In this document: positions 5,883-26,594 of the stretch, piece by piece
How positions within the stretch are numbered: the stretch's first letter is position 1
Layout of the letters: each line of letters opens with the position of its first letter
From: Escherichia phage HMD-P3
Reading direction: 5' to 3' (one strand)
Sequence record: PQ462667.1
Length of the DNA stretch: 64,000 nt
Notes under the pieces: model-generated
Databases searched by the model: none
Told to the model about the DNA's origin: nothing
Seen by the model: only the letters and a program-made list of their open reading frames with translations
Made by a program: the position numbers and the translations under genes

Positions 5883-7757
5883 ATGAATCGCAATGAAGAA
5901 CTAAAGTATAAAGAAATGCAGGCGTTAATTAGAAACTGCAAAGAGATTATCGAAGGGTCAGCAGATGAAGAGCTGCTGTTTAATAATGCTAATAAACCCT
6001 CAGAACGTTTCCCTACACAAAGGGATATGCTTGCAGGTGAATTGAGTAAGTATCTGATTCTAGAAGAAATGCCAATTCAGATTCGAAATGCTCATATGAT
6101 TGGGGATATTCATTTCCATGATGCTGATTATGCTGCATTAGGCATGACTAACTGTTGTCTGGTAGCTCTGGAAGATATGCTGAAGAATGGTATGAAGGTT
6201 GGTAATGCTGAAATTAGCACTCCAAACTCTATCACTACTGCGGCGGCTATTACTGCTCAGATTATCACTCAGGTTAGCTCTCATCAGTATGGTGGTACTT
6301 CTGTAGATCGCCTTGATGAAGTATTAGCCCCTTATGTTCGTAAATCCTATGACAAAAATCATGCGTTTGCAAAACGTTGGACTAAGGATGAAGCCAAAGC
6401 ATCAGTAATGGCTACGGAGATGACTGAAAAGGAAGTCTATGATGCCTGTCAGGGTCTAGAGTATGAAATCAATACGATGTTCAACTCTAACGGTCAGAGT
6501 CCATTTATTACCTTTGGTTTTGGTCTAGGAACTTCTTGGGAAGCACGTCTAGTACAGAAAGCAATACTGAAAGTACGCATGGATGGTTTAGGTATCAATA
6601 AACGTACAGCTATCTTCCCGAAACTGGTATTTGTACTTCGTGATGGAGTAAATATGAAACCAGGAGATGTTAATTATGACATCAAGAAGTTAGCTATGAA
6701 ATGTACTGCTGAACGTATGTATCCAGACTATATCAGCTATGATAAGGTTGTGGAAGTTACTGGGGACTACAAAGTTTCTATGGGTTGTCGTTCATTCCTA
6801 GCTGCTACAGAAGATGGTGAAACTGCCGGTCGTAATAACTTAGGTGTTGTTTCTGTAAACTTGCCTAGAATTGCTATCGAAGCTGAAGGAAATATTGACC
6901 TATTCTTTGATTTGCTTGAGCTACGTGTAGATACAGCGTTAAAAGCGTTGGAGTGGAGAGTTGATCGCTTAAAATACATTCAAGCTAAAGCTGCACCCAT
7001 CCTGTATATGTCAGGAGCCTTTGGACTGCGCTTGGAGCCTGATGAATATGTATTCGATCATTTCTATAACCGTGCTTCTGTATCTCTAGGGTATATTGGT
7101 TGCCATGAAATGCTACAGTTTATGTTTGGCAAAGATGTAGACACAATGTCCGAGACCTGCATCAAGTTTGTTCAGCGTGTATTGCAGTACATGCGGGATA
7201 GAGTCGATCAGAAGAAGGAAGAAACTAAATTAGGTTATAGCCTGTATGCTACACCATCAGAATCCCTATGTGACCGTTTTTGTCGTCTAGACCGTGAATA
7301 TTTCCCAGAGCATGAAGATATTCTGTCCAAAGGATACTACACTAACTCGCACCACCTTGATGTAGAACGTAAAGTTGCTCCCAATGTGAAATTTGATTAT
7401 GAATCTAACTTTACTCCGATTGCTTCTGGTGGGTGCATTTCCTATGTAGAACTACCGGATATGAAACGATTCCCAGATGCACTGGAATGGGTTATTAATT
7501 ATGCTGCTAGTAAGGTTCATTACTTCGGTATTAATACCCCAGTGGATTCTTGTGGTAAATGTGGATTCTTAGGTGAAACAATAGCATCCGAAGATGGATT
7601 TAAGTGCCCTATCTGTGGTAATCATGACCCCGAAACTCTTGAAGTAACTCGTCGAGTTTGTGGGTATCTTGGAAATCCGGGTGCTCGTCCATTTAACCCC
7701 GGCAAACAGCACGAGGTGATGGGCAGAGTGAAGCATCAGGATATTCGAGCTAAGTAA
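5883..7757 (+). CDS. nrdD: anaerobic ribonucleoside-triphosphate reductase (class III)
   Basis: 624 aa; C-terminal glycyl-radical motif RVCGYLG and zinc ribbon CGKCG...CPICG. Confidence 0.9.
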   Translation: MNRNEELKYKEMQALIRNCKEIIEGSADEELLFNNANKPSERFPTQRDMLAGELSKYLILEEMPIQIRNAHMIGDIHFHDADYAALGMTNCCLVALEDMLKNGMKVGNAEISTPNSITTAAAITAQIITQVSSHQYGGTSVDRLDEVLAPYVRKSYDKNHAFAKRWTKDEAKASVMATEMTEKEVYDACQGLEYEINTMFNSNGQSPFITFGFGLGTSWEARLVQKAILKVRMDGLGINKRTAIFPKLVFVLRDGVNMKPGDVNYDIKKLAMKCTAERMYPDYISYDKVVEVTGDYKVSMGCRSFLAATEDGETAGRNNLGVVSVNLPRIAIEAEGNIDLFFDLLELRVDTALKALEWRVDRLKYIQAKAAPILYMSGAFGLRLEPDEYVFDHFYNRASVSLGYIGCHEMLQFMFGKDVDTMSETCIKFVQRVLQYMRDRVDQKKEETKLGYSLYATPSESLCDRFCRLDREYFPEHEDILSKGYYTNSHHLDVERKVAPNVKFDYESNFTPIASGGCISYVELPDMKRFPDALEWVINYAASKVHYFGINTPVDSCGKCGFLGETIASEDGFKCPICGNHDPETLEVTRRVCGYLGNPGARPFNPGKQHEVMGRVKHQDIRAK

Positions 7758-16281: not shown

Positions 16282-16590
16282 ATGAGCGAACAGGTAAATC
16301 AAAACTATGAAGGACACGTTGATGACCAGTCCATCATACTTTGGGAGAAGGAGGGAGAACAAGTAAGATTAACAGTATCTGAATTTCGTGGGAATCTATA
16401 CATGGGTATTCGTTACTGGCTTCTTGATATTAATGATGAATGGTTTCCAACGAAATCTGGCTTCTCTTTTCCTTACACCCTAGAAACAACATCACAGCTT
16501 TTCTATGCGTTTACACAGATTCTTAGCGAATCTGAGGTTTTACATGAAGTACAGAAACGAGCTGAAGAACTCAAAGCCAAGAATGCCTAG
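16282..16590 (+). CDS. hypothetical protein (102 aa)
   Basis: ORF with start directly after the terminator; no recognisable motif. Confidence 0.55.
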   Translation: MSEQVNQNYEGHVDDQSIILWEKEGEQVRLTVSEFRGNLYMGIRYWLLDINDEWFPTKSGFSFPYTLETTSQLFYAFTQILSESEVLHEVQKRAEELKAKNA

Positions 16591-16605
16591 TTCTTGGCTT
16601 TTTCT
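16574..16605 (+). terminator. rho-independent terminator overlapping the stop codon
   Basis: 10-bp stem AAGCCAAGAA / TTCTTGGCTT with loop TGCCTAG, then TTTTT. Confidence 0.6.
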
Positions 16606-16617
16606 TTATAAATGTAT

Positions 16618-16646
16618 TTGCTTTCAACTCAGTTTTGTTATATAAT
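16618..16646 (+). promoter_or_regulatory. T5-type early promoter
   Basis: TTGCTT 16618..16623, 17 bp, TATAAT 16641..16646, then TTTATATAAATTGATGAGAGGA box. Confidence 0.65.
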
Positions 16647-16675
16647 ATTTATATAAATTGATGAGAGGATCAATT

Positions 16676-16864
16676 ATGAACATAACACTTCCAAAAATTC
16701 AAGCAAAGTTAAACCTAGTATCAACTGCTAGAAATAACTATCTAGATAACTTTGGTGGAATCAACGATAAAGCGTACAAAGATGCGTGGTTGAAAGAAGC
16801 GCAAGAGTTAGCCGATCTCACTACTCAGTATAGTAAAGAACTACAGGTAGAAATGAATGACTAA
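16676..16864 (+). CDS. hypothetical small protein (62 aa)
   Basis: ATG 16676 after GAGAGGA RBS; the upstream ATG at 16658 lies inside the promoter downstream box. Confidence 0.5.
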   Translation: MNITLPKIQAKLNLVSTARNNYLDNFGGINDKAYKDAWLKEAQELADLTTQYSKELQVEMND

Positions 16865-17828
16865 TGTAAAAGACTTTATTAAACGTTGTCAAGAAGCATA
16901 TTACCAGGGAATGTCTTTAATCTCTGACGAAGAATATGATCGTCTGATTAAAAGATTTCCGTTAGAAGAAGAGATCGGGCCTAAGGGTGATATTCCACAT
17001 CTGTATCGTATGTATTCTTTACAGAAAGTTTATTATAATCGTGGAGATAAACCTCCGTTTAACCCATTAGGTCAGGTAGAAACTGATAAGTTAGATGGTT
17101 GTGCGATTTCTCTGTTATATATTAATGGCGAATTTGTTCAAGCACTAACTCGTGGTAATGGTATTCTAGGGAACGATGTCACAAGCAACGTAAGATTGCT
17201 GAACATTCCTAAAAAGATTTCCCAAAAAGTACCTACTCAAATCACTGGTGAAGTTCTAATTACAAAAGAAGTAGAAAATAAACGTAACTTTGCCTCTGGT
17301 GCTATTAACCTCAAAGATAGTGATGATTTCGTACAGCGTATCGGAGAAGGTGGTTTAATCTTCGTTGCATACGGTATCCAGTGTTCTGGTGAATCTGTAG
17401 GTATTACAGAAACGTATTTAAAAGATATGCTTTGGCTAGAGAATGAGAACTTCTTAACAGTTGTTAATGTGCGTTCCTTCTTTAAGTGGATTCCAACGGA
17501 TGGTAAAGTTGTTCGTATTAATGACAACAACAAATTCTTCCGAGAAGGCTGGACTAATAAATTTCCTCGTGGAGCATTCGCTATTAAAGAGGATGAAGAA
17601 GGTGAGATTACTACTCTTACTAAAGTTGAATGGCAGGTAGGGGCTTCTGGTAAAGTAACTCCAGTTGGTTATTTCGAACCGGTAATTATTGATGATGCTA
17701 CAATTGTTAAGGCGACTCTTAATAACGTTGATTATATTAACTCTCTCGATCTAGAGATCGGTTGCCAGATTCGAGTAATTCGTGCTGGTGGTGTAATCCC
17801 GTGCATAGTAGAGCGAGTATACGATTAA
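16857..17828 (+). CDS. NAD-dependent DNA ligase, N-terminal (adenylation/OB) part encoded as a separate ORF
   Basis: Ligase motif I KLDG (ETDKLDGCAISLLY) and adenylation-domain-like sequence; ends in a stop with a 200-bp gap before the C-terminal part. Confidence 0.75.
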   Translation: MTNVKDFIKRCQEAYYQGMSLISDEEYDRLIKRFPLEEEIGPKGDIPHLYRMYSLQKVYYNRGDKPPFNPLGQVETDKLDGCAISLLYINGEFVQALTRGNGILGNDVTSNVRLLNIPKKISQKVPTQITGEVLITKEVENKRNFASGAINLKDSDDFVQRIGEGGLIFVAYGIQCSGESVGITETYLKDMLWLENENFLTVVNVRSFFKWIPTDGKVVRINDNNKFFREGWTNKFPRGAFAIKEDEEGEITTLTKVEWQVGASGKVTPVGYFEPVIIDDATIVKATLNNVDYINSLDLEIGCQIRVIRAGGVIPCIVERVYD

Positions 17829-17878
17829 TACATAACCCTTTGCTACCCATCTACCATATCGGAATTATAAAGTGGTTA

Positions 17879-17907
17879 TTGACATTTTCGCCGCTTAGGT
17901 ATATACT
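17879..17907 (+). promoter_or_regulatory. sigma70-type promoter inside the ligase inter-ORF spacer
   Basis: TTGACA 17879..17884, 17 bp, TATACT 17902..17907. Confidence 0.5.
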
Positions 17908-17971
17908 ATTATCATTCAGTTGAGGGATAGAAAGTTATGGCGAGGGTAAGCAAAGTTAGTTAAAATTGTAG

Positions 17972-18000
17972 TTGCTAAATGCTTAAATACTTGCTATAAT
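17972..18000 (+). promoter_or_regulatory. T5-type early promoter upstream of the ligase C-terminal ORF
   Basis: TTGCTA 17972..17977, 17 bp, TATAAT 17995..18000, then ATTTATATAAATTGATAAGGAAG. Confidence 0.6.
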
Positions 18001-18030
18001 ATTTATATAAATTGATAAGGAAGAAATTTG

Positions 18031-18810
18031 ATGAAAATCGAAATTCCAATACAATGTCCCTCTTGTGGTTCTAAGCTAGATCTTGTCAACGGACAATTAT
18101 TCTGTCGGAATAAGTCCAACTGTCCAGCGCAATCAAGTAAGTTAATTGAGAACTTCTGTACAAAAATGAAGTTAAAGGGCTTTGGCCCAAAAACTATTGA
18201 GAAGCTGGAGCTGACGAAGATTTCAGAACTATTCTACCTAACCGAAGAAGATTTGGTTAGAGCCGTGGGTAGCAAGGTTGCCGCTAAATTAATTAGCGAA
18301 TTAAATACTAAAGTTCGCGGAGACATTGACTTTGGTTCAGTTCTCGGTTCTTTAGGAATCCCTCTAATTGGAGAGGTTGCAGCAAAGAAATTATCCCAAA
18401 ATTGCACTAGCTTCCACGATGTGAAGGCTGACGGCAAGGCTGGAGAAAACTATAAAACCTGGCTAAATTCCCCACAAGGCAAGGATGTTATTGAATTACC
18501 GTGGAAATTCTCAACTGGTATCAGAGGTGCAAAAGCTAATATTATCATTACAGATGAATTAGTTGCCCAGCCAAACGGAATCGCGGTATGTATTACCGGA
18601 TCTTTGCAAGATTTTGCAAATCGAACGGATGCAACAAACTATTTAGAAAGTCTAGGATATACGGTTAAGAAATCCGTTACCAAAGACGTCAAATACCTAA
18701 TCTGTGAGGATGAATCAAAACGTTCTTCCTCATCTTATAAGAAAGCCGAAACGAATGGGATAGAAATCCTGTCGATTAAAGAACTATTGGAGAAAAATAA
18801 TAATGTCTAA
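18031..18810 (+). CDS. NAD-dependent DNA ligase, C-terminal (Zn finger / HhH / BRCT) part
   Basis: Cys4 zinc-finger CPSCGSKL...CRNKSNCPAQ at the N-terminus, HhH-like and BRCT-like C-terminal region; ATG 18031 (longest ORF from TTG 18028). Confidence 0.75.
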   Translation: MKIEIPIQCPSCGSKLDLVNGQLFCRNKSNCPAQSSKLIENFCTKMKLKGFGPKTIEKLELTKISELFYLTEEDLVRAVGSKVAAKLISELNTKVRGDIDFGSVLGSLGIPLIGEVAAKKLSQNCTSFHDVKADGKAGENYKTWLNSPQGKDVIELPWKFSTGIRGAKANIIITDELVAQPNGIAVCITGSLQDFANRTDATNYLESLGYTVKKSVTKDVKYLICEDESKRSSSSYKKAETNGIEILSIKELLEKNNNV

Positions 18811-19570
18811 ACTGAACTGGAACGTAGAAGGTGTAACCGAGTCTCTGAAAGCAAAAGCCACTGCTCTGGGTGTTGCTGTAATCTCTCAAGAACAAGTAGC
18901 TGCTATCGCTGCTGAACTGGCTGCTGAAACTGGCAAAGACGTTACAGCTCGCTCTGTCGGCTCTAAACTGCGTAAAGAAGGTTTTGAAGTACAGAAAGCT
19001 AACGAAGTACAGAAATCCCCGTGGACTCCTGAGCAGGAAGCTGAACTGGTTGATTTCCTGAACGCTCATGCTGGTCAGTACACCTATGCTGAAATCGCTG
19101 CTGCTGTAGCTGGTGGTCAGTTCGGTGCTAAACAGGTACAGGGTAAGATCCTGAGTCTGGAAATGACCGCTTCTGTTAAGCCAACCGAAAAAGCTGCTGC
19201 TGTTCGTTCCTTTACTCCAGATGAAGAAACTGATTTTGTTAATCAGGTTGTTGCTGGTGCTACTATTGAAGCTATCGCTGCTCACTTCGGTCGTAATATC
19301 AAGCAGATCCGTGGTAAAGCTCTGAGCCTGCTTCGTGAAGGTCGTATCGCTGCTATGCCGGTACAGGAAACTTCAAGTGCTAAAACTCGTGAAGATCTGT
19401 TAGAAGGTCTGGATCTGGTTAACATGACTGTTGCTGAGATCGCTGAGAAAACTGGTAAGTCTGAGCGCGGTGTTAAATCTATGCTGTCTCGTCGTGGTCT
19501 GGTTGCTAAGGACTATGATGGTGCCGCTAAGCGTGCTAAACTGGATGCAAAAGCTGCGGCTGCTGAATAA
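18803..19570 (+). CDS. abundant early DNA-binding-like protein with four internal HTH-like repeats (possibly the T5 D5-type protein)
   Basis: 255 aa; strongly host-optimised codons; four repeats of the pattern xAEIAxxxGKxxxxVxSKLRxxG; strong terminator downstream. Confidence 0.55.
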   Translation: MSKLNWNVEGVTESLKAKATALGVAVISQEQVAAIAAELAAETGKDVTARSVGSKLRKEGFEVQKANEVQKSPWTPEQEAELVDFLNAHAGQYTYAEIAAAVAGGQFGAKQVQGKILSLEMTASVKPTEKAAAVRSFTPDEETDFVNQVVAGATIEAIAAHFGRNIKQIRGKALSLLREGRIAAMPVQETSSAKTREDLLEGLDLVNMTVAEIAEKTGKSERGVKSMLSRRGLVAKDYDGAAKRAKLDAKAAAAE

Positions 19571-19588
19571 TCTGGTAAATTAAACCTA

Positions 19589-19620
19589 AGGGGAGGGGGC
19601 TATGCTCCTTCCCCTTTTTG
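19589..19620 (+). terminator. strong rho-independent terminator
   Basis: 11-bp stem AGGGGAGGGGG / CTCCTTCCCCT with loop CTATG, followed by TTTTT. Confidence 0.65.
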
Positions 19621-25132: not shown

Positions 25133-26481
25133 AGGTTGTTATATCTAATAAAGCCTATTTCAAGCCCGATGATGAACTTTGGGATTATTGTAGTAAACAA
25201 ACCACTTATCACATAGAGACAATGACTAGTAAATACCCTATTATGTATAAGAATAGTGGTGTTGTTGCCAAAGAGATTAAGTGGATTCCTATTACGCGTC
25301 TGGATTTACTAGATGCTAAAGGAGTAAAATACGAATTAGTCGATAAACGTACATTAGCTCCTGTAGATATACCAAAACCTAAGTTCAAGCTGCGTGAAGA
25401 AGATCAGCTTCCAATATACGAAGAATGCGATGATACCTGTATTATTAATGGTAAGCCTGGATTTGGTAAAACTATCCTAGCCCTTGCACTTGCGTATAAA
25501 TTTGGCCAGAAAACTTTGGTAATTTGTACCAACACATCTATTCGTGAAATGTGGGCTGCAGAAGTTCGTAAATGGTTTGGGTTTGAACCGGGTATCATAG
25601 GTTCTGGGAAATACAATATTGATCCACCAATTGTGGTCAGTAATATTCAAACAGTGAATAAACATGCGAATAATCTGTCTAAAGTATTCGGTACTGTTAT
25701 AGTTGATGAAGTTCACCATTGTGTGGCCACAACTTTCACTAACTTCCTAGAAATATCATGTGCTCGCTATAAGATTGGACTATCTGGAACATTAAAACGT
25801 AAAGATGGTCTACAAGTTATGTTCAAAGATTTCTTTGGATATAAGGTCTTTAGCCCACCGGTTAATAATACTGTTGCACCTACAATCCATAGGTACTCCG
25901 TGCCTGTTGAGTTATCAGGAAACCAAAACGTACCGTGGGCATTACGTGCTAATGATGTGTACAACCATCCTGAATATCGAGAGACTATTATAAATCTAGC
26001 ACATTTATACGTGAACATGGGACATAAAGTACTCATTGTAAGTGACAGAACAGAGTTAATCCAAACAGTACTAGAAGCTCTTGCACAGCGTGGTGTTACA
26101 ACATATGAAATTATAGGGGCAACCCACTTAGATGACCGATTAAAAATTCAGGAAGATATAGCAAAAGGTGGACCTTGTGTACTTGCAGCAGCTCAAAGTA
26201 TCTTCTCTGAGGGTATTTCTCTAAATGAGTTGTCTTGTTTAATAATGGGAAGTCTCATTAATAATGAATCTCTCATTGAACAGCTTGCAGGACGTGTTCA
26301 ACGTATTGTCGATGGTAAACTCGACCCTATTGTTGTAGATTTAATTATGAAAGGCGGCACTGGACTAAGACAGGCTTCTGGACGTATGGCAGTATATCGT
26401 AATAACGGGTGGAAAACTATTACTATGACTCCGGAGAAAGCAGTTCAATTAGCTAAAATTGCATTTGGCAACAGCTCATAA
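25129..26481 (+). CDS. SF2 DNA helicase (T5 D10-like)
   Basis: Helicase motif I GKPGFGKT and motif II VDEVHH; 450 aa. Confidence 0.8.
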   Translation: MKVVISNKAYFKPDDELWDYCSKQTTYHIETMTSKYPIMYKNSGVVAKEIKWIPITRLDLLDAKGVKYELVDKRTLAPVDIPKPKFKLREEDQLPIYEECDDTCIINGKPGFGKTILALALAYKFGQKTLVICTNTSIREMWAAEVRKWFGFEPGIIGSGKYNIDPPIVVSNIQTVNKHANNLSKVFGTVIVDEVHHCVATTFTNFLEISCARYKIGLSGTLKRKDGLQVMFKDFFGYKVFSPPVNNTVAPTIHRYSVPVELSGNQNVPWALRANDVYNHPEYRETIINLAHLYVNMGHKVLIVSDRTELIQTVLEALAQRGVTTYEIIGATHLDDRLKIQEDIAKGGPCVLAAAQSIFSEGISLNELSCLIMGSLINNESLIEQLAGRVQRIVDGKLDPIVVDLIMKGGTGLRQASGRMAVYRNNGWKTITMTPEKAVQLAKIAFGNSS

Positions 26482-26493
26482 ATGATGTATAAT
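26465..26493 (+). promoter_or_regulatory. T5-type promoter overlapping the 3-prime end of the helicase gene
   Basis: TTGGCA 26465..26470, 17 bp, TATAAT 26488..26493, then ATATACATAAATTTGAGAGAGAAAG. Confidence 0.55.
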
Positions 26494-26564: not shown

Positions 26565-26594
26565 TTGCTAAATTCTCTCGAAATCTAGTATAAT
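26565..26594 (+). promoter_or_regulatory. T5-type promoter
   Basis: TTGCTA 26565..26570, 18 bp, TATAAT 26589..26594, then ATATACATAAATTCGAGGAG. Confidence 0.55.

Follow-up and report, generated by a model that had tools for sequence, protein, structure and literature searches.

Within the 64-kb stretch of Tequintavirus DNA analysed in this study (the window, meaning this whole stretch), an NAD+-dependent DNA ligase is encoded by two ORFs, ligA and ligB, which lie in different reading frames and are separated by a 202-bp gap. The initial annotation had described the ligase as two separate ORFs, and this description was borne out by the coordinates, by the Pfam domains and by recurrence of the layout across genera; all locus coordinates were reproduced from the ORF list and a sequence check. 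The features of the locus are:

16573..16601, plus strand: intrinsic terminator (12-pair hairpin, then a T run) at the end of the preceding transcription unit, behind the PC4-like gene
16618..16646, plus strand: predicted promoter of the ligA unit, TTGCTT-17-TATAAT, read from the sequence; its equivalent position in the T5 record is T5P35
16641..16665, plus strand: 'repeat b' cassette (-10 to leader), copy of the ligA unit, 24/25 identical to 17995-18019
16676..16864, plus strand: small ORF, phrog_8267, function unknown, 62 aa from the ATG at 16676, with an upstream TTG start at 16658
16857..17828, plus strand: ligA (subunit A), 323 aa, with domain Ia-like N-terminus, adenylation domain and OB fold
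17829..17870, plus strand: variable 5′ part of the spacer (15/42 columns vary among 33 Markadamsvirinae sequences), where the GIY-YIG gene of phage SP3 is inserted
17879..17907, plus strand: predicted promoter P1 (T5P36), TTGACA-17-TATACT, from the consensus scan (11/12) and the T5 annotation
17937..17963, plus strand: 8-codon ORF (MARVSKVS-stop), probably not a gene
17972..18000, plus strand: predicted promoter P2 (T5P37), TTGCTA-17-TATAAT, with an extended -10 TG at 17992-17993, from the consensus scan and the T5 annotation
17995..18019, plus strand: 'repeat b' cassette (-10 to leader), ligB copy, from repeat comparison and the T5 annotation
18017..18023, plus strand: AAGGAAG as Shine-Dalgarno sequence, spaced 7 nt from the ATG of ligB, read from the sequence
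18031..18810, plus strand: ligB (subunit B), 259 aa from ATG, with Cys4 Zn finger, HhH, flexible linker and BRCT
18803..19570, plus strand: D5 DNA-binding protein gene, annotated as D5 in relatives
19588..19616, plus strand: strong intrinsic terminator at the end of the ligB-D5 unit, a 13-pair hairpin with 8 GC pairs followed by a T run

The 3′ end of the phrog_8267 ORF overlaps the start of ligA by 8 nt, and an overlap of 8 nt is also formed by the ligB stop and the D5 start (ATGTCTAA); D5 adjoins ligB in every genus examined. Just before the ligB ATG, an in-frame TTG is located at 18028, and in phage Seafire an RBS is annotated at the place matching 18017..18023. Terminators were predicted at 16573-16601 and 19588-19616 only. 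From these sequence signals we infer a transcript layout in which, since no terminator follows ligA, transcripts from the ligA promoter would continue into ligB-D5, which would also be served by its own two promoters, all of them running to the terminator at 19588-19616.

The split two-gene NAD-dependent ligase of T5-like phages is already known, in the case of T5 from literature since 2005, and the arrangement in the window is real but ordinary. In the T5 record (AY587007; AAU05253/AAU05254), dnlj1 and dnlj2 are found in the same order (94.7% nucleotide identity to ligA and 95.8% to ligB), the spacer is identical to that of the window at 201 of 202 positions, and the promoters T5P36 and T5P37 as well as 'repeat b' are the same. 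The initial annotation was thus right in expecting a split ligase in T5. Also, a rho-independent terminator is annotated in T5 at the place matching 16573..16601. The sole meaningful difference is the extra 62-aa phrog_8267 ORF between promoter and ligA, which is missing ahead of ligA in T5, while PS3-1 has a different ORF there. Other phage records name the two genes ligA/ligB or subunit A/B.

Domain composition and position of the break

The ligA product matched the Pfam families PF01653 (adenylation; E 7.8e-24, above its cut-off) and PF03120 (OB; E 3.8e-22, residues 252-321). Its KxDG motif reads TDKLDG with lysine K78 and aligns with the motif of fused, single-chain relatives, with which the N-terminus also has the pattern YY..ISDxEYDxL in common. 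For domain Ia, residues 4-42 aligned weakly to residues 13-52 of Thermus filiformis LigA. The assignment of essential residues in this domain follows E. coli LigA mutagenesis and is tentative. In the ligB product, Pfam detected BRCT (E 5.9e-8) and, by weak matches, HhH; the Zn-finger cysteines C9, C12, C25, and C31 were invariant in 61 homologues. An AlphaFold2 model of LigB reached a pLDDT of 91, with 9hu3_B, 2owo, and 1dgs as Foldseek matches. ORF calls, Pfam domains and cysteines agree with the earlier placement of the end of the KLDG adenylation part at 17828 and the start of the Zn/HhH/BRCT part at 18031.

Bacterial LigA (E. coli 2owo, T. filiformis 1dgs) corresponds to the phage enzyme in its succession of domains (Ia, putative in the phage, then NTase, OB, Zn finger, HhH and BRCT) and shares the KxDG motif and the Cys4 finger with it. 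Bacterial LigA measures about 670 aa in one chain; the phage enzyme is more compact, its two polypeptides totalling 582 aa. A single chain with all domains characterises the NAD+-dependent LigA family; the phage enzyme departs from this, and the trait defines the split subfamily. LigA residues 214-320 align to residues 284-390 of E. coli LigA (2owo) and LigB residues 3-122 to residues 402-529, and with these borders at 390 and 402 only about 6 linker residues are unaccounted for between LigA and LigB. LigA stops 2 residues after the end of its OB domain, and in LigB the Zn finger begins at residue 9. In the comparison with bacterial LigA, which had been proposed as a check, A and B were thus colinear; judged by these alignments, the break falls exactly in the flexible OB-to-Zn-finger linker, and each product is made up of whole domains with none missing or duplicated.

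An orthologous two-chain enzyme with the same domain split is the ligase of Providencia phage vB_PreS_PR1 (PDB 9hu3, 9i5i; released January 2026), the entry 9hu3 bearing the title 'PR1 phage heterodimeric DNA ligase in complex with 21-mer nicked DNA'. Chain B of 9hu3 is 100% identical to LigB of the Providencia phages PR1 and PSTCR5. LigA of the window matched chain A with an E-value of 1.9e-104 and LigB matched chain B with 6.5e-80, roughly half of the aligned residues being identical (chain B 53%, Foldseek). PR1 belongs to another genus (Priunavirus) of the same family, and its 192-bp spacer shares only the promoter cores with that of the window. No paper on 9hu3 or the PR1 ligase was found in the literature searched, and these sources contained no structure or assay of the Tequintavirus ligase itself. 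By analogy, NMN binding (domain Ia), adenylyl transfer and the OB fold would come from LigA, and the Zn finger, the DNA-clamping HhH domain and BRCT from LigB; the two chains would associate non-covalently on nicked DNA, thereby rebuilding the LigA-type clamp. For the PR1 orthologue the evidence for this assembly is direct (9hu3, by entry title), and for the window phage it is expected from homology.

The split was found in 429 of 514 matching phage records, in 14/14 loci compared from about a dozen genera, and in every Demerecviridae genus examined; in every locus examined, both genes were present with ligA followed by ligB. The initial annotation had named a sequencing frameshift or stop error in a single ligase gene as what would refute the split. 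Only the unusual two-ORF layout speaks for such a sequencing or assembly error, and it is refuted by the recurrence of the split across genomes. The same 202-bp spacer is common to T5 and hundreds of independently sequenced phages, it contains stop codons in all three frames between ORFs that lie in different frames, and the orthologue was crystallised as two chains, so that an artefact is virtually excluded.

Some phage genes contain introns or inteins, or a gap that ribosomes bypass, td and gene 60 of phage T4 being examples, and in principle intron splicing, a split intein or ribosomal bypassing could unite the products of the two ORFs in a single chain. This is extremely improbable for the ligase. 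A search of 16500-19000 against Rfam (E ≤ 1) matched no family, group I and II introns included, and the LigA and LigB termini described above carry no extra residues and therefore leave no room for intein halves. Moreover, whole genes of 0.4-1.4 kb occupy the gap in Vibrio phages and Serratia phage Kamaji, predicted promoters and an RBS are conserved in the spacer, and the PR1 entry describes a heterodimer.

Predicted promoters and leader of ligB

The spacer (17829..18030) comprises 202 bp with 31% GC and showed neither a skew switch nor a composition anomaly when checked for foreign DNA or a replication origin. Of the promoter-like elements that the initial annotation had placed at 17879..17907 and 17972..18000, the consensus scan returned exactly both, and T5 annotates them as promoters. 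Although promoter-like matches were not enriched overall in the 4-kb region (11 vs 9.1 expected), P1 and P2 were the best plus-strand matches in it, and they are unlike chance matches because their positions are conserved across 12 phage genera. The ligA-unit promoter at 16618..16646 was missing from the scan output because its -35 matches only 3/6. In all 12 cultured genera, the P1 -35 lies 145-155 nt upstream of ligB; the P2 -35 is located at -58 to -60 relative to ligB. Across the 12 genera the core elements of the module do not vary, or hardly do so in the case of TTGC and TTGnTATAnTAT of P2. Between Tequintavirus and Epseptimavirus, the 160 nt before ligB are identical at 160/160 positions, as against 10-26% divergence at the third codon positions of the genes on either side. 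Among the 33 sequences, variable columns amounted to 10/160 in the promoter module versus 109/260 at ligB third positions, and the module is conserved more strongly than even ligB codon positions 1-2. By consensus and conservation, the spacer is a conserved tandem module of predicted sigma-70 early promoters heading the ligB-D5 operon. The comparison among T5-like phages suggested earlier thus revealed a module kept at a fixed position before ligB, which fits the claim that ligB would have promoters of its own.

An ATATT motif at or after the -10 is reported for T5 early promoters (PMC7472727); as a plain string, ATATT occurs in P2 (TATAATATT), overlapping the -10, and not in P1 (TATACTATT). 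The 'repeat b' cassette occurs in two copies only in the 64-kb window (chance expectation none) and is within it unique to the ligA unit and ligB, ahead of both; the T5 record annotates the same two cassettes as repeat b copies 4 and 5. A role of 'repeat b' as a ligase-specific promoter cassette was considered and not adopted, as the near-identity is confined to Markadamsvirinae and T5 numbers at least three further copies elsewhere.

The 8-codon ORF pointed out at 17937 in the initial annotation is present, and it shows no sign of being a gene. A leader peptide was rejected, since its ATG is absent outside Markadamsvirinae and the substitutions are all non-synonymous, the variable sites 17949, 17952, and 17959 falling in codon position 1 or 2. 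Also, a conserved leader RNA was not adopted: the P1 leader of the window folds with z = -3.7 and those of other genera only with z = -0.3 to -2.2, and RNAalifold gave no consensus pairs. The inter-promoter segment alone had a mean z of -2.0 ± 0.4, and perfect 10-12-bp inverted repeats were found in it in 3/10 genera, being lost between close relatives.

Two dedicated predicted promoters besides read-through, and translational coupling of ligB to D5 and not to ligA, could reflect a function of LigB of its own, e.g. in sensing nicks or DNA ends or in acting together with D5 or the replisome, hence its separate, stronger transcription. Stand-alone LigB-like proteins of about 250 aa, which dominate the best 150 representative clusters, point in the same direction. 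However, at the loci examined ligB was always accompanied by ligA, in unchanged order, no LigB-only genome was among those seen in a non-exhaustive search, and the only experimental entry (9hu3) treats both as one heterodimeric enzyme; a separate function is therefore quite improbable. Likewise speculative and improbable is that the promoter module actively maintains the split by driving high, separately regulated expression of ligB-D5, whereby the inter-promoter segment with its inverted repeats in several genera might act as operator or leader RNA and an excess of LigB might serve a second role, e.g. recognising the phage's site-specific nicks.

Fused relatives, gap genes and the probable history of the split

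Uncultured T5-like phages (P0029, P0051, P0106, and others) encode a single fused ligase of 555-578 aa. Concatenated LigA and LigB are colinear with these fused ligases (36-40% identity over 535-557 residues), and the LigA/LigB junction falls in a short, variable linker. The fused gene occupies the same slot as in split phages, with the gene order PC4-like gene, ligase, D5 homologue (38-43% identity), DnaB and primase. In contrast to the split genes, the fused ligases are made as one polypeptide and have no intergenic promoter module at the junction. Promoter presence and split are imperfectly coupled, because in one fused relative (L050) a site resembling a promoter lies within the gene, about 55 nt past the junction; at L048, a distant split locus, there is a single promoter instead of two.

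In some lineages, the gap holds additional genes. Salmonella phage SP3 and one other phage carry a GIY-YIG endonuclease gene there, beside which the ligA 3′ end is divergent, and DprA-like and unknown genes are found in the gap of Vibrio phages and Serratia phage Kamaji. Searches of the gap genes with Pfam and PHROGs identified only the DprA-like and GIY-YIG genes, not the 204-aa gene of Kamaji or the small ORFs of Vibrio phages. These occupants of the gap, the divergent ligA end and a conserved SD-like GAGGG after P1 that is followed by no conserved ORF would suit the idea, raised by the initial annotation, that the spacer is the remnant of an inserted element, i.e. a decayed mobile element such as a homing-endonuclease gene that split the ligase and left promoters and mini-ORF behind. 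While relatives do carry inserted genes at the site, no sequence trace of an insertion was detected in the spacer itself, which has no detectable similarity to an endonuclease or other gene and no anomalous composition. The GIY-YIG gene is rare (3 of about 50,000 records). Furthermore, the gap genes are located upstream of an intact P1-P2 module in every lineage having them; the module therefore predates the insertions, and it is subject to strong purifying selection. We consider a remnant unlikely.

The preferred history is the fission of a fused ancestor: an ancestral ligase of about 560 aa would have been split at the linker by gaining a promoter-bearing intergenic region, which in some lineages may later have taken up accessory and mobile genes. 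Fission is most likely, rather than fusion of split genes, by parsimony, bacterial LigA being a single chain. By the domain and promoter analyses, the locus very probably represents a heterodimeric NAD+-dependent DNA ligase of T5-like (Demerecviridae) type with a promoter-module spacer.

As a discovery, the split carries little weight, the T5 case being known for so long and the orthologous heterodimer having been solved in 2026. The additions made here are modest and concern the conservation of the ligB promoter module, the fused relatives, the gap genes and the non-conservation of the mini-ORF. Fused and split versions of a compact ligase in syntenic T5-like replication modules lend themselves to work on the tolerance of multidomain enzymes to fission, and the family-wide promoter module defines a testable ligB-D5 transcription unit. 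As a side observation on database entries, several records mislabel the GIY-YIG endonuclease gene as "ligase subunit A".

Domain distribution over ligA and ligB

The NAD-dependent DNA ligase of Escherichia phage HMD-P3 is encoded by two separate ORFs in different reading frames, at the positions given in the initial annotation. The locus contains the following features:

16618-16646, upstream promoter, equivalent of T5P35
16857-17828, ORF A (ligA), 323 aa
17879-17907, promoter-like site P1 (T5P36 in T5), TTGACA-17-TATACT, from a consensus scan
17937-17963, 8-codon ORF in the short interval between P1 and P2
17972-18000, promoter-like site P2 (T5P37 in T5), TTGCTA-17-TG-n-TATAAT, from a consensus scan
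18031-18810, ORF B (ligB), 259 aa counted from the ATG, with an in-frame TTG 3 bases upstream

In ORF A, Pfam detected the adenylation domain of NAD ligases (E 7.8e-24) and a ligase OB fold (E 3.8e-22); ORF B gave a BRCT domain (E 5.9e-8) and weaker HhH matches. Compared with E. coli LigA (2owo), residues 214-320 of LigA align with 284-390 and residues 3-122 of LigB with 402-529, leaving about six linker residues alone unaccounted for between the subunits. The ligase domains are split over both proteins, with none missing and none duplicated. In an AlphaFold2 model (pLDDT 91), LigB begins with a Zn ribbon and an HhH domain spanning roughly residues 32-155; a disordered linker (167-177) leads from there to a BRCT domain at 185-257. 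The best structural matches of the model are chain B of PDB 9hu3 and bacterial LigA structures. All four Zn-finger cysteines are invariant among 61 LigB homologues.

An intron, a split intein or bypass at the break is excluded: no Rfam match was obtained, no spare residues are present at the break, and some relatives carry whole genes in the ligA-ligB gap.

The region shares 98% identity with tequintaviruses of Salmonella, Shigella and Escherichia and 95.7% with T5 itself, whose ligase is, as initially suggested, likewise annotated as split (AY587007; dnlj1 and dnlj2). Within the spacer, the T5 record also marks T5P36 and T5P37 as 'putative early promoters' and places a 'repeat b' element inside T5P37. 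Both ligA and ligB are listed by Wong et al. (PMC3632103). In PDB 9hu3/9i5i, chain A matches LigA (E 1.9e-104) and chain B matches LigB (E 6.5e-80). Entry 9hu3, released on 2026-01-14, is titled 'PR1 phage heterodimeric DNA ligase in complex with 21-mer nicked DNA containing phage nick sequence'; no publication on it was found in the literature searched. Its chain B is identical to LigB from Providencia phages vB_PreS_PR1 and PSTCR5, two members of the family to which HMD-P3 belongs. The split ligase is already known; the initial observation is confirmed and its interpretation supported. Homology establishes the domain content, the position of the break and the orthology to an enzyme that was deposited as a heterodimer bound to nicked DNA. 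NAD+ would adenylylate LigA, LigB would contribute its BRCT domain and a DNA clamp formed by the Zn finger and HhH domain, and both subunits would join non-covalently, encircling the nick like single-chain LigA.

Split and fused ligases among relatives

Separate ligA and ligB genes were found in all Demerecviridae lineages sampled. The gap is non-coding and 182-206 bp long in Tequintavirus, Epseptimavirus, Sugarlandvirus, Priunavirus, Hongcheonvirus and Shenzhenvirus, and measures 344 bp with a small ORF in Novosibvirus. LigB was also searched in a representative library of 1.84 billion proteins; the best 150 matched clusters were mostly stand-alone proteins of ~250 aa, and about a dozen contained a compact fused form. 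Concatenated LigA and LigB are colinear with compact single-chain metagenomic ligases of 555-578 aa (36-40% identity over 535-557 residues); relative to these, the break lies in a short, length-variable linker that connects '...GGVIP.IV...' to the Zn finger '..I.IP..CP.C'. Three examples of the fused ligase show the synteny of the window (PC4-like gene, ligase, D5 homologue with 38-43% identity, DnaB helicase, primase), and therefore both states coexist within the wider T5-like lineage. A compact fused ancestor probably underwent fission at the linker on acquiring the promoter-bearing intergenic region.

The metagenomic contigs L049, L050 and L051, from uncultured T5-like phages, carry a single-chain compact NAD ligase of 557-568 aa at this position, between the PC4-like gene and D5. 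Inside the ligase gene of L050, a strong promoter-like sequence, TTGACA-17-(TG)CATAAT, lies at 6992, ~55 nt past the split-equivalent position.

Spacer promoters and predicted transcription layout

The spacer (202 bp, 31% GC) has stops in all three frames, and both of its initially reported promoter-like elements were recovered. Comparison among T5-like phages revealed the same promoter module in every cultured genus, occupying the ~155 nt before ligB, with the −35 of P1 at −145 to −155 and that of P2 at −58 to −60 relative to ligB, including in phages with other genes between ligA and ligB. Invariant columns across 12 genera are essentially the promoter cores, TTGAC ... TATAnT (P1) and TTGC ... 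TTGnTATAnTAT (P2). In Markadamsvirinae, the window and two epseptimaviruses agree at every one of the 160 positions preceding ligB (160/160), against a divergence of 10-26% at the third codon positions of the flanking genes. Among 33 sequences, only 10 of the 160 module columns show variation, almost always in a single sequence; ligB varies at 109 of its 260 third codon positions and at 27-37 of 260 for the first and second. The first 42 nt make up the variable part of the spacer, and Salmonella phage SP3 carries its insertion there. A distant uncultured split locus (L048) has one perfect-consensus promoter 36 nt upstream of ligB.

The tiny spacer ORF is present, but as a gene it finds no support in the sequence comparison: its ATG is not conserved beyond Markadamsvirinae, and all three variable sites fall at codon position 1 or 2.

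On average, the segment from P1 to the P2 −10 has a more stable fold than its shuffled controls (mean z −2.0 ± 0.4 over 10 genera; z −3.7 in the window); it lies at 17914-18000, with equivalents in comparison loci L004, L008, L009 and L012. Perfect inverted repeats of 10-12 bp, partly overlapping the P2 core, occur in three genera (PM135, Kamaji, Cilsick) and are lost in pVp-1 and Shiner, and close relatives differ; no alignable consensus structure was found across the genera compared. The segment could act as an operator or form a leader hairpin, or be of no significance.

The DNA-binding protein gene D5 adjoins ligB in all genera and overlaps it by 8 nt, and no terminator-like hairpins were predicted other than those at 16573-16601 and 19588-19616. 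The predicted order is T5P35-equivalent promoter, small ORF, ligA, P1, P2, ligB, D5 and terminator. With this layout, ligB-D5 would be transcribed both by read-through and from two dedicated promoters. For the proposed independent transcription of the ligB half, the promoter sites are present, and early promoters of its own would drive ligB together with D5. The P2 −10-to-leader cassette ('repeat b' of T5) occurs twice in the 64-kb window, the other copy lying in the promoter before the ligA unit; near-identity is confined to Markadamsvirinae, and T5 has more copies elsewhere.

Two further strong early-type promoters (26465-26493 and 26565-26594, + strand) form a second tandem pair ~100 nt apart, each followed by TATAATATATACATAAATT, so that this arrangement recurs in the early region. 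Another promoter (43057-43029, − strand), TTGATA-17-TATAAT followed by ATTGTTATTAAAGAGGAGAAATTAACTATG, resembles the classical strong T5 promoter PD/E20. The strong terminator hairpin at 19588-19616 after D5 overlaps the longest-ORF start (19602) of the DnaB-like helicase, a start also annotated in T5 (ORF110); the true start is probably a downstream methionine.

Variable genes in or beside the locus

In Serratia phage Kamaji, the ligA-ligB gap holds a 204-aa gene of unknown function; in Vibrio phages Cilsick, pVp-1 and D50, it holds a DprA-like gene (phrog_768) and small ORFs. This recombination-mediator gene lies between ligA and ligB in Vibrio phage loci L004 (2784-3344) and L006 (2817-3344) and immediately upstream of ligA in Pectobacterium phage DU_PP_V (L007, 783-1346); its position relative to the ligase genes has therefore shifted. 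In SP3 (L002, MG387042.1, 2222-2863) and one other phage (PQ002169.1), a GIY-YIG homing-endonuclease gene of 213 aa lies between the ligA stop and P1 (Pfam E 1.1e-5, above the cut-off); the records mislabel it as 'ligase subunit A'. Next to it, ligA is unusually divergent at its 3′ end, as would be expected of a co-conversion tract. A second variable site adjoining the ligase lies between the upstream promoter and ligA, where a 62-aa ORF of unknown function (phrog_8267, 16676-16864) shares 8 nt with the start of ligA. T5 lacks this ORF, and phage PS3-1 has a different one of 90 aa in its place.
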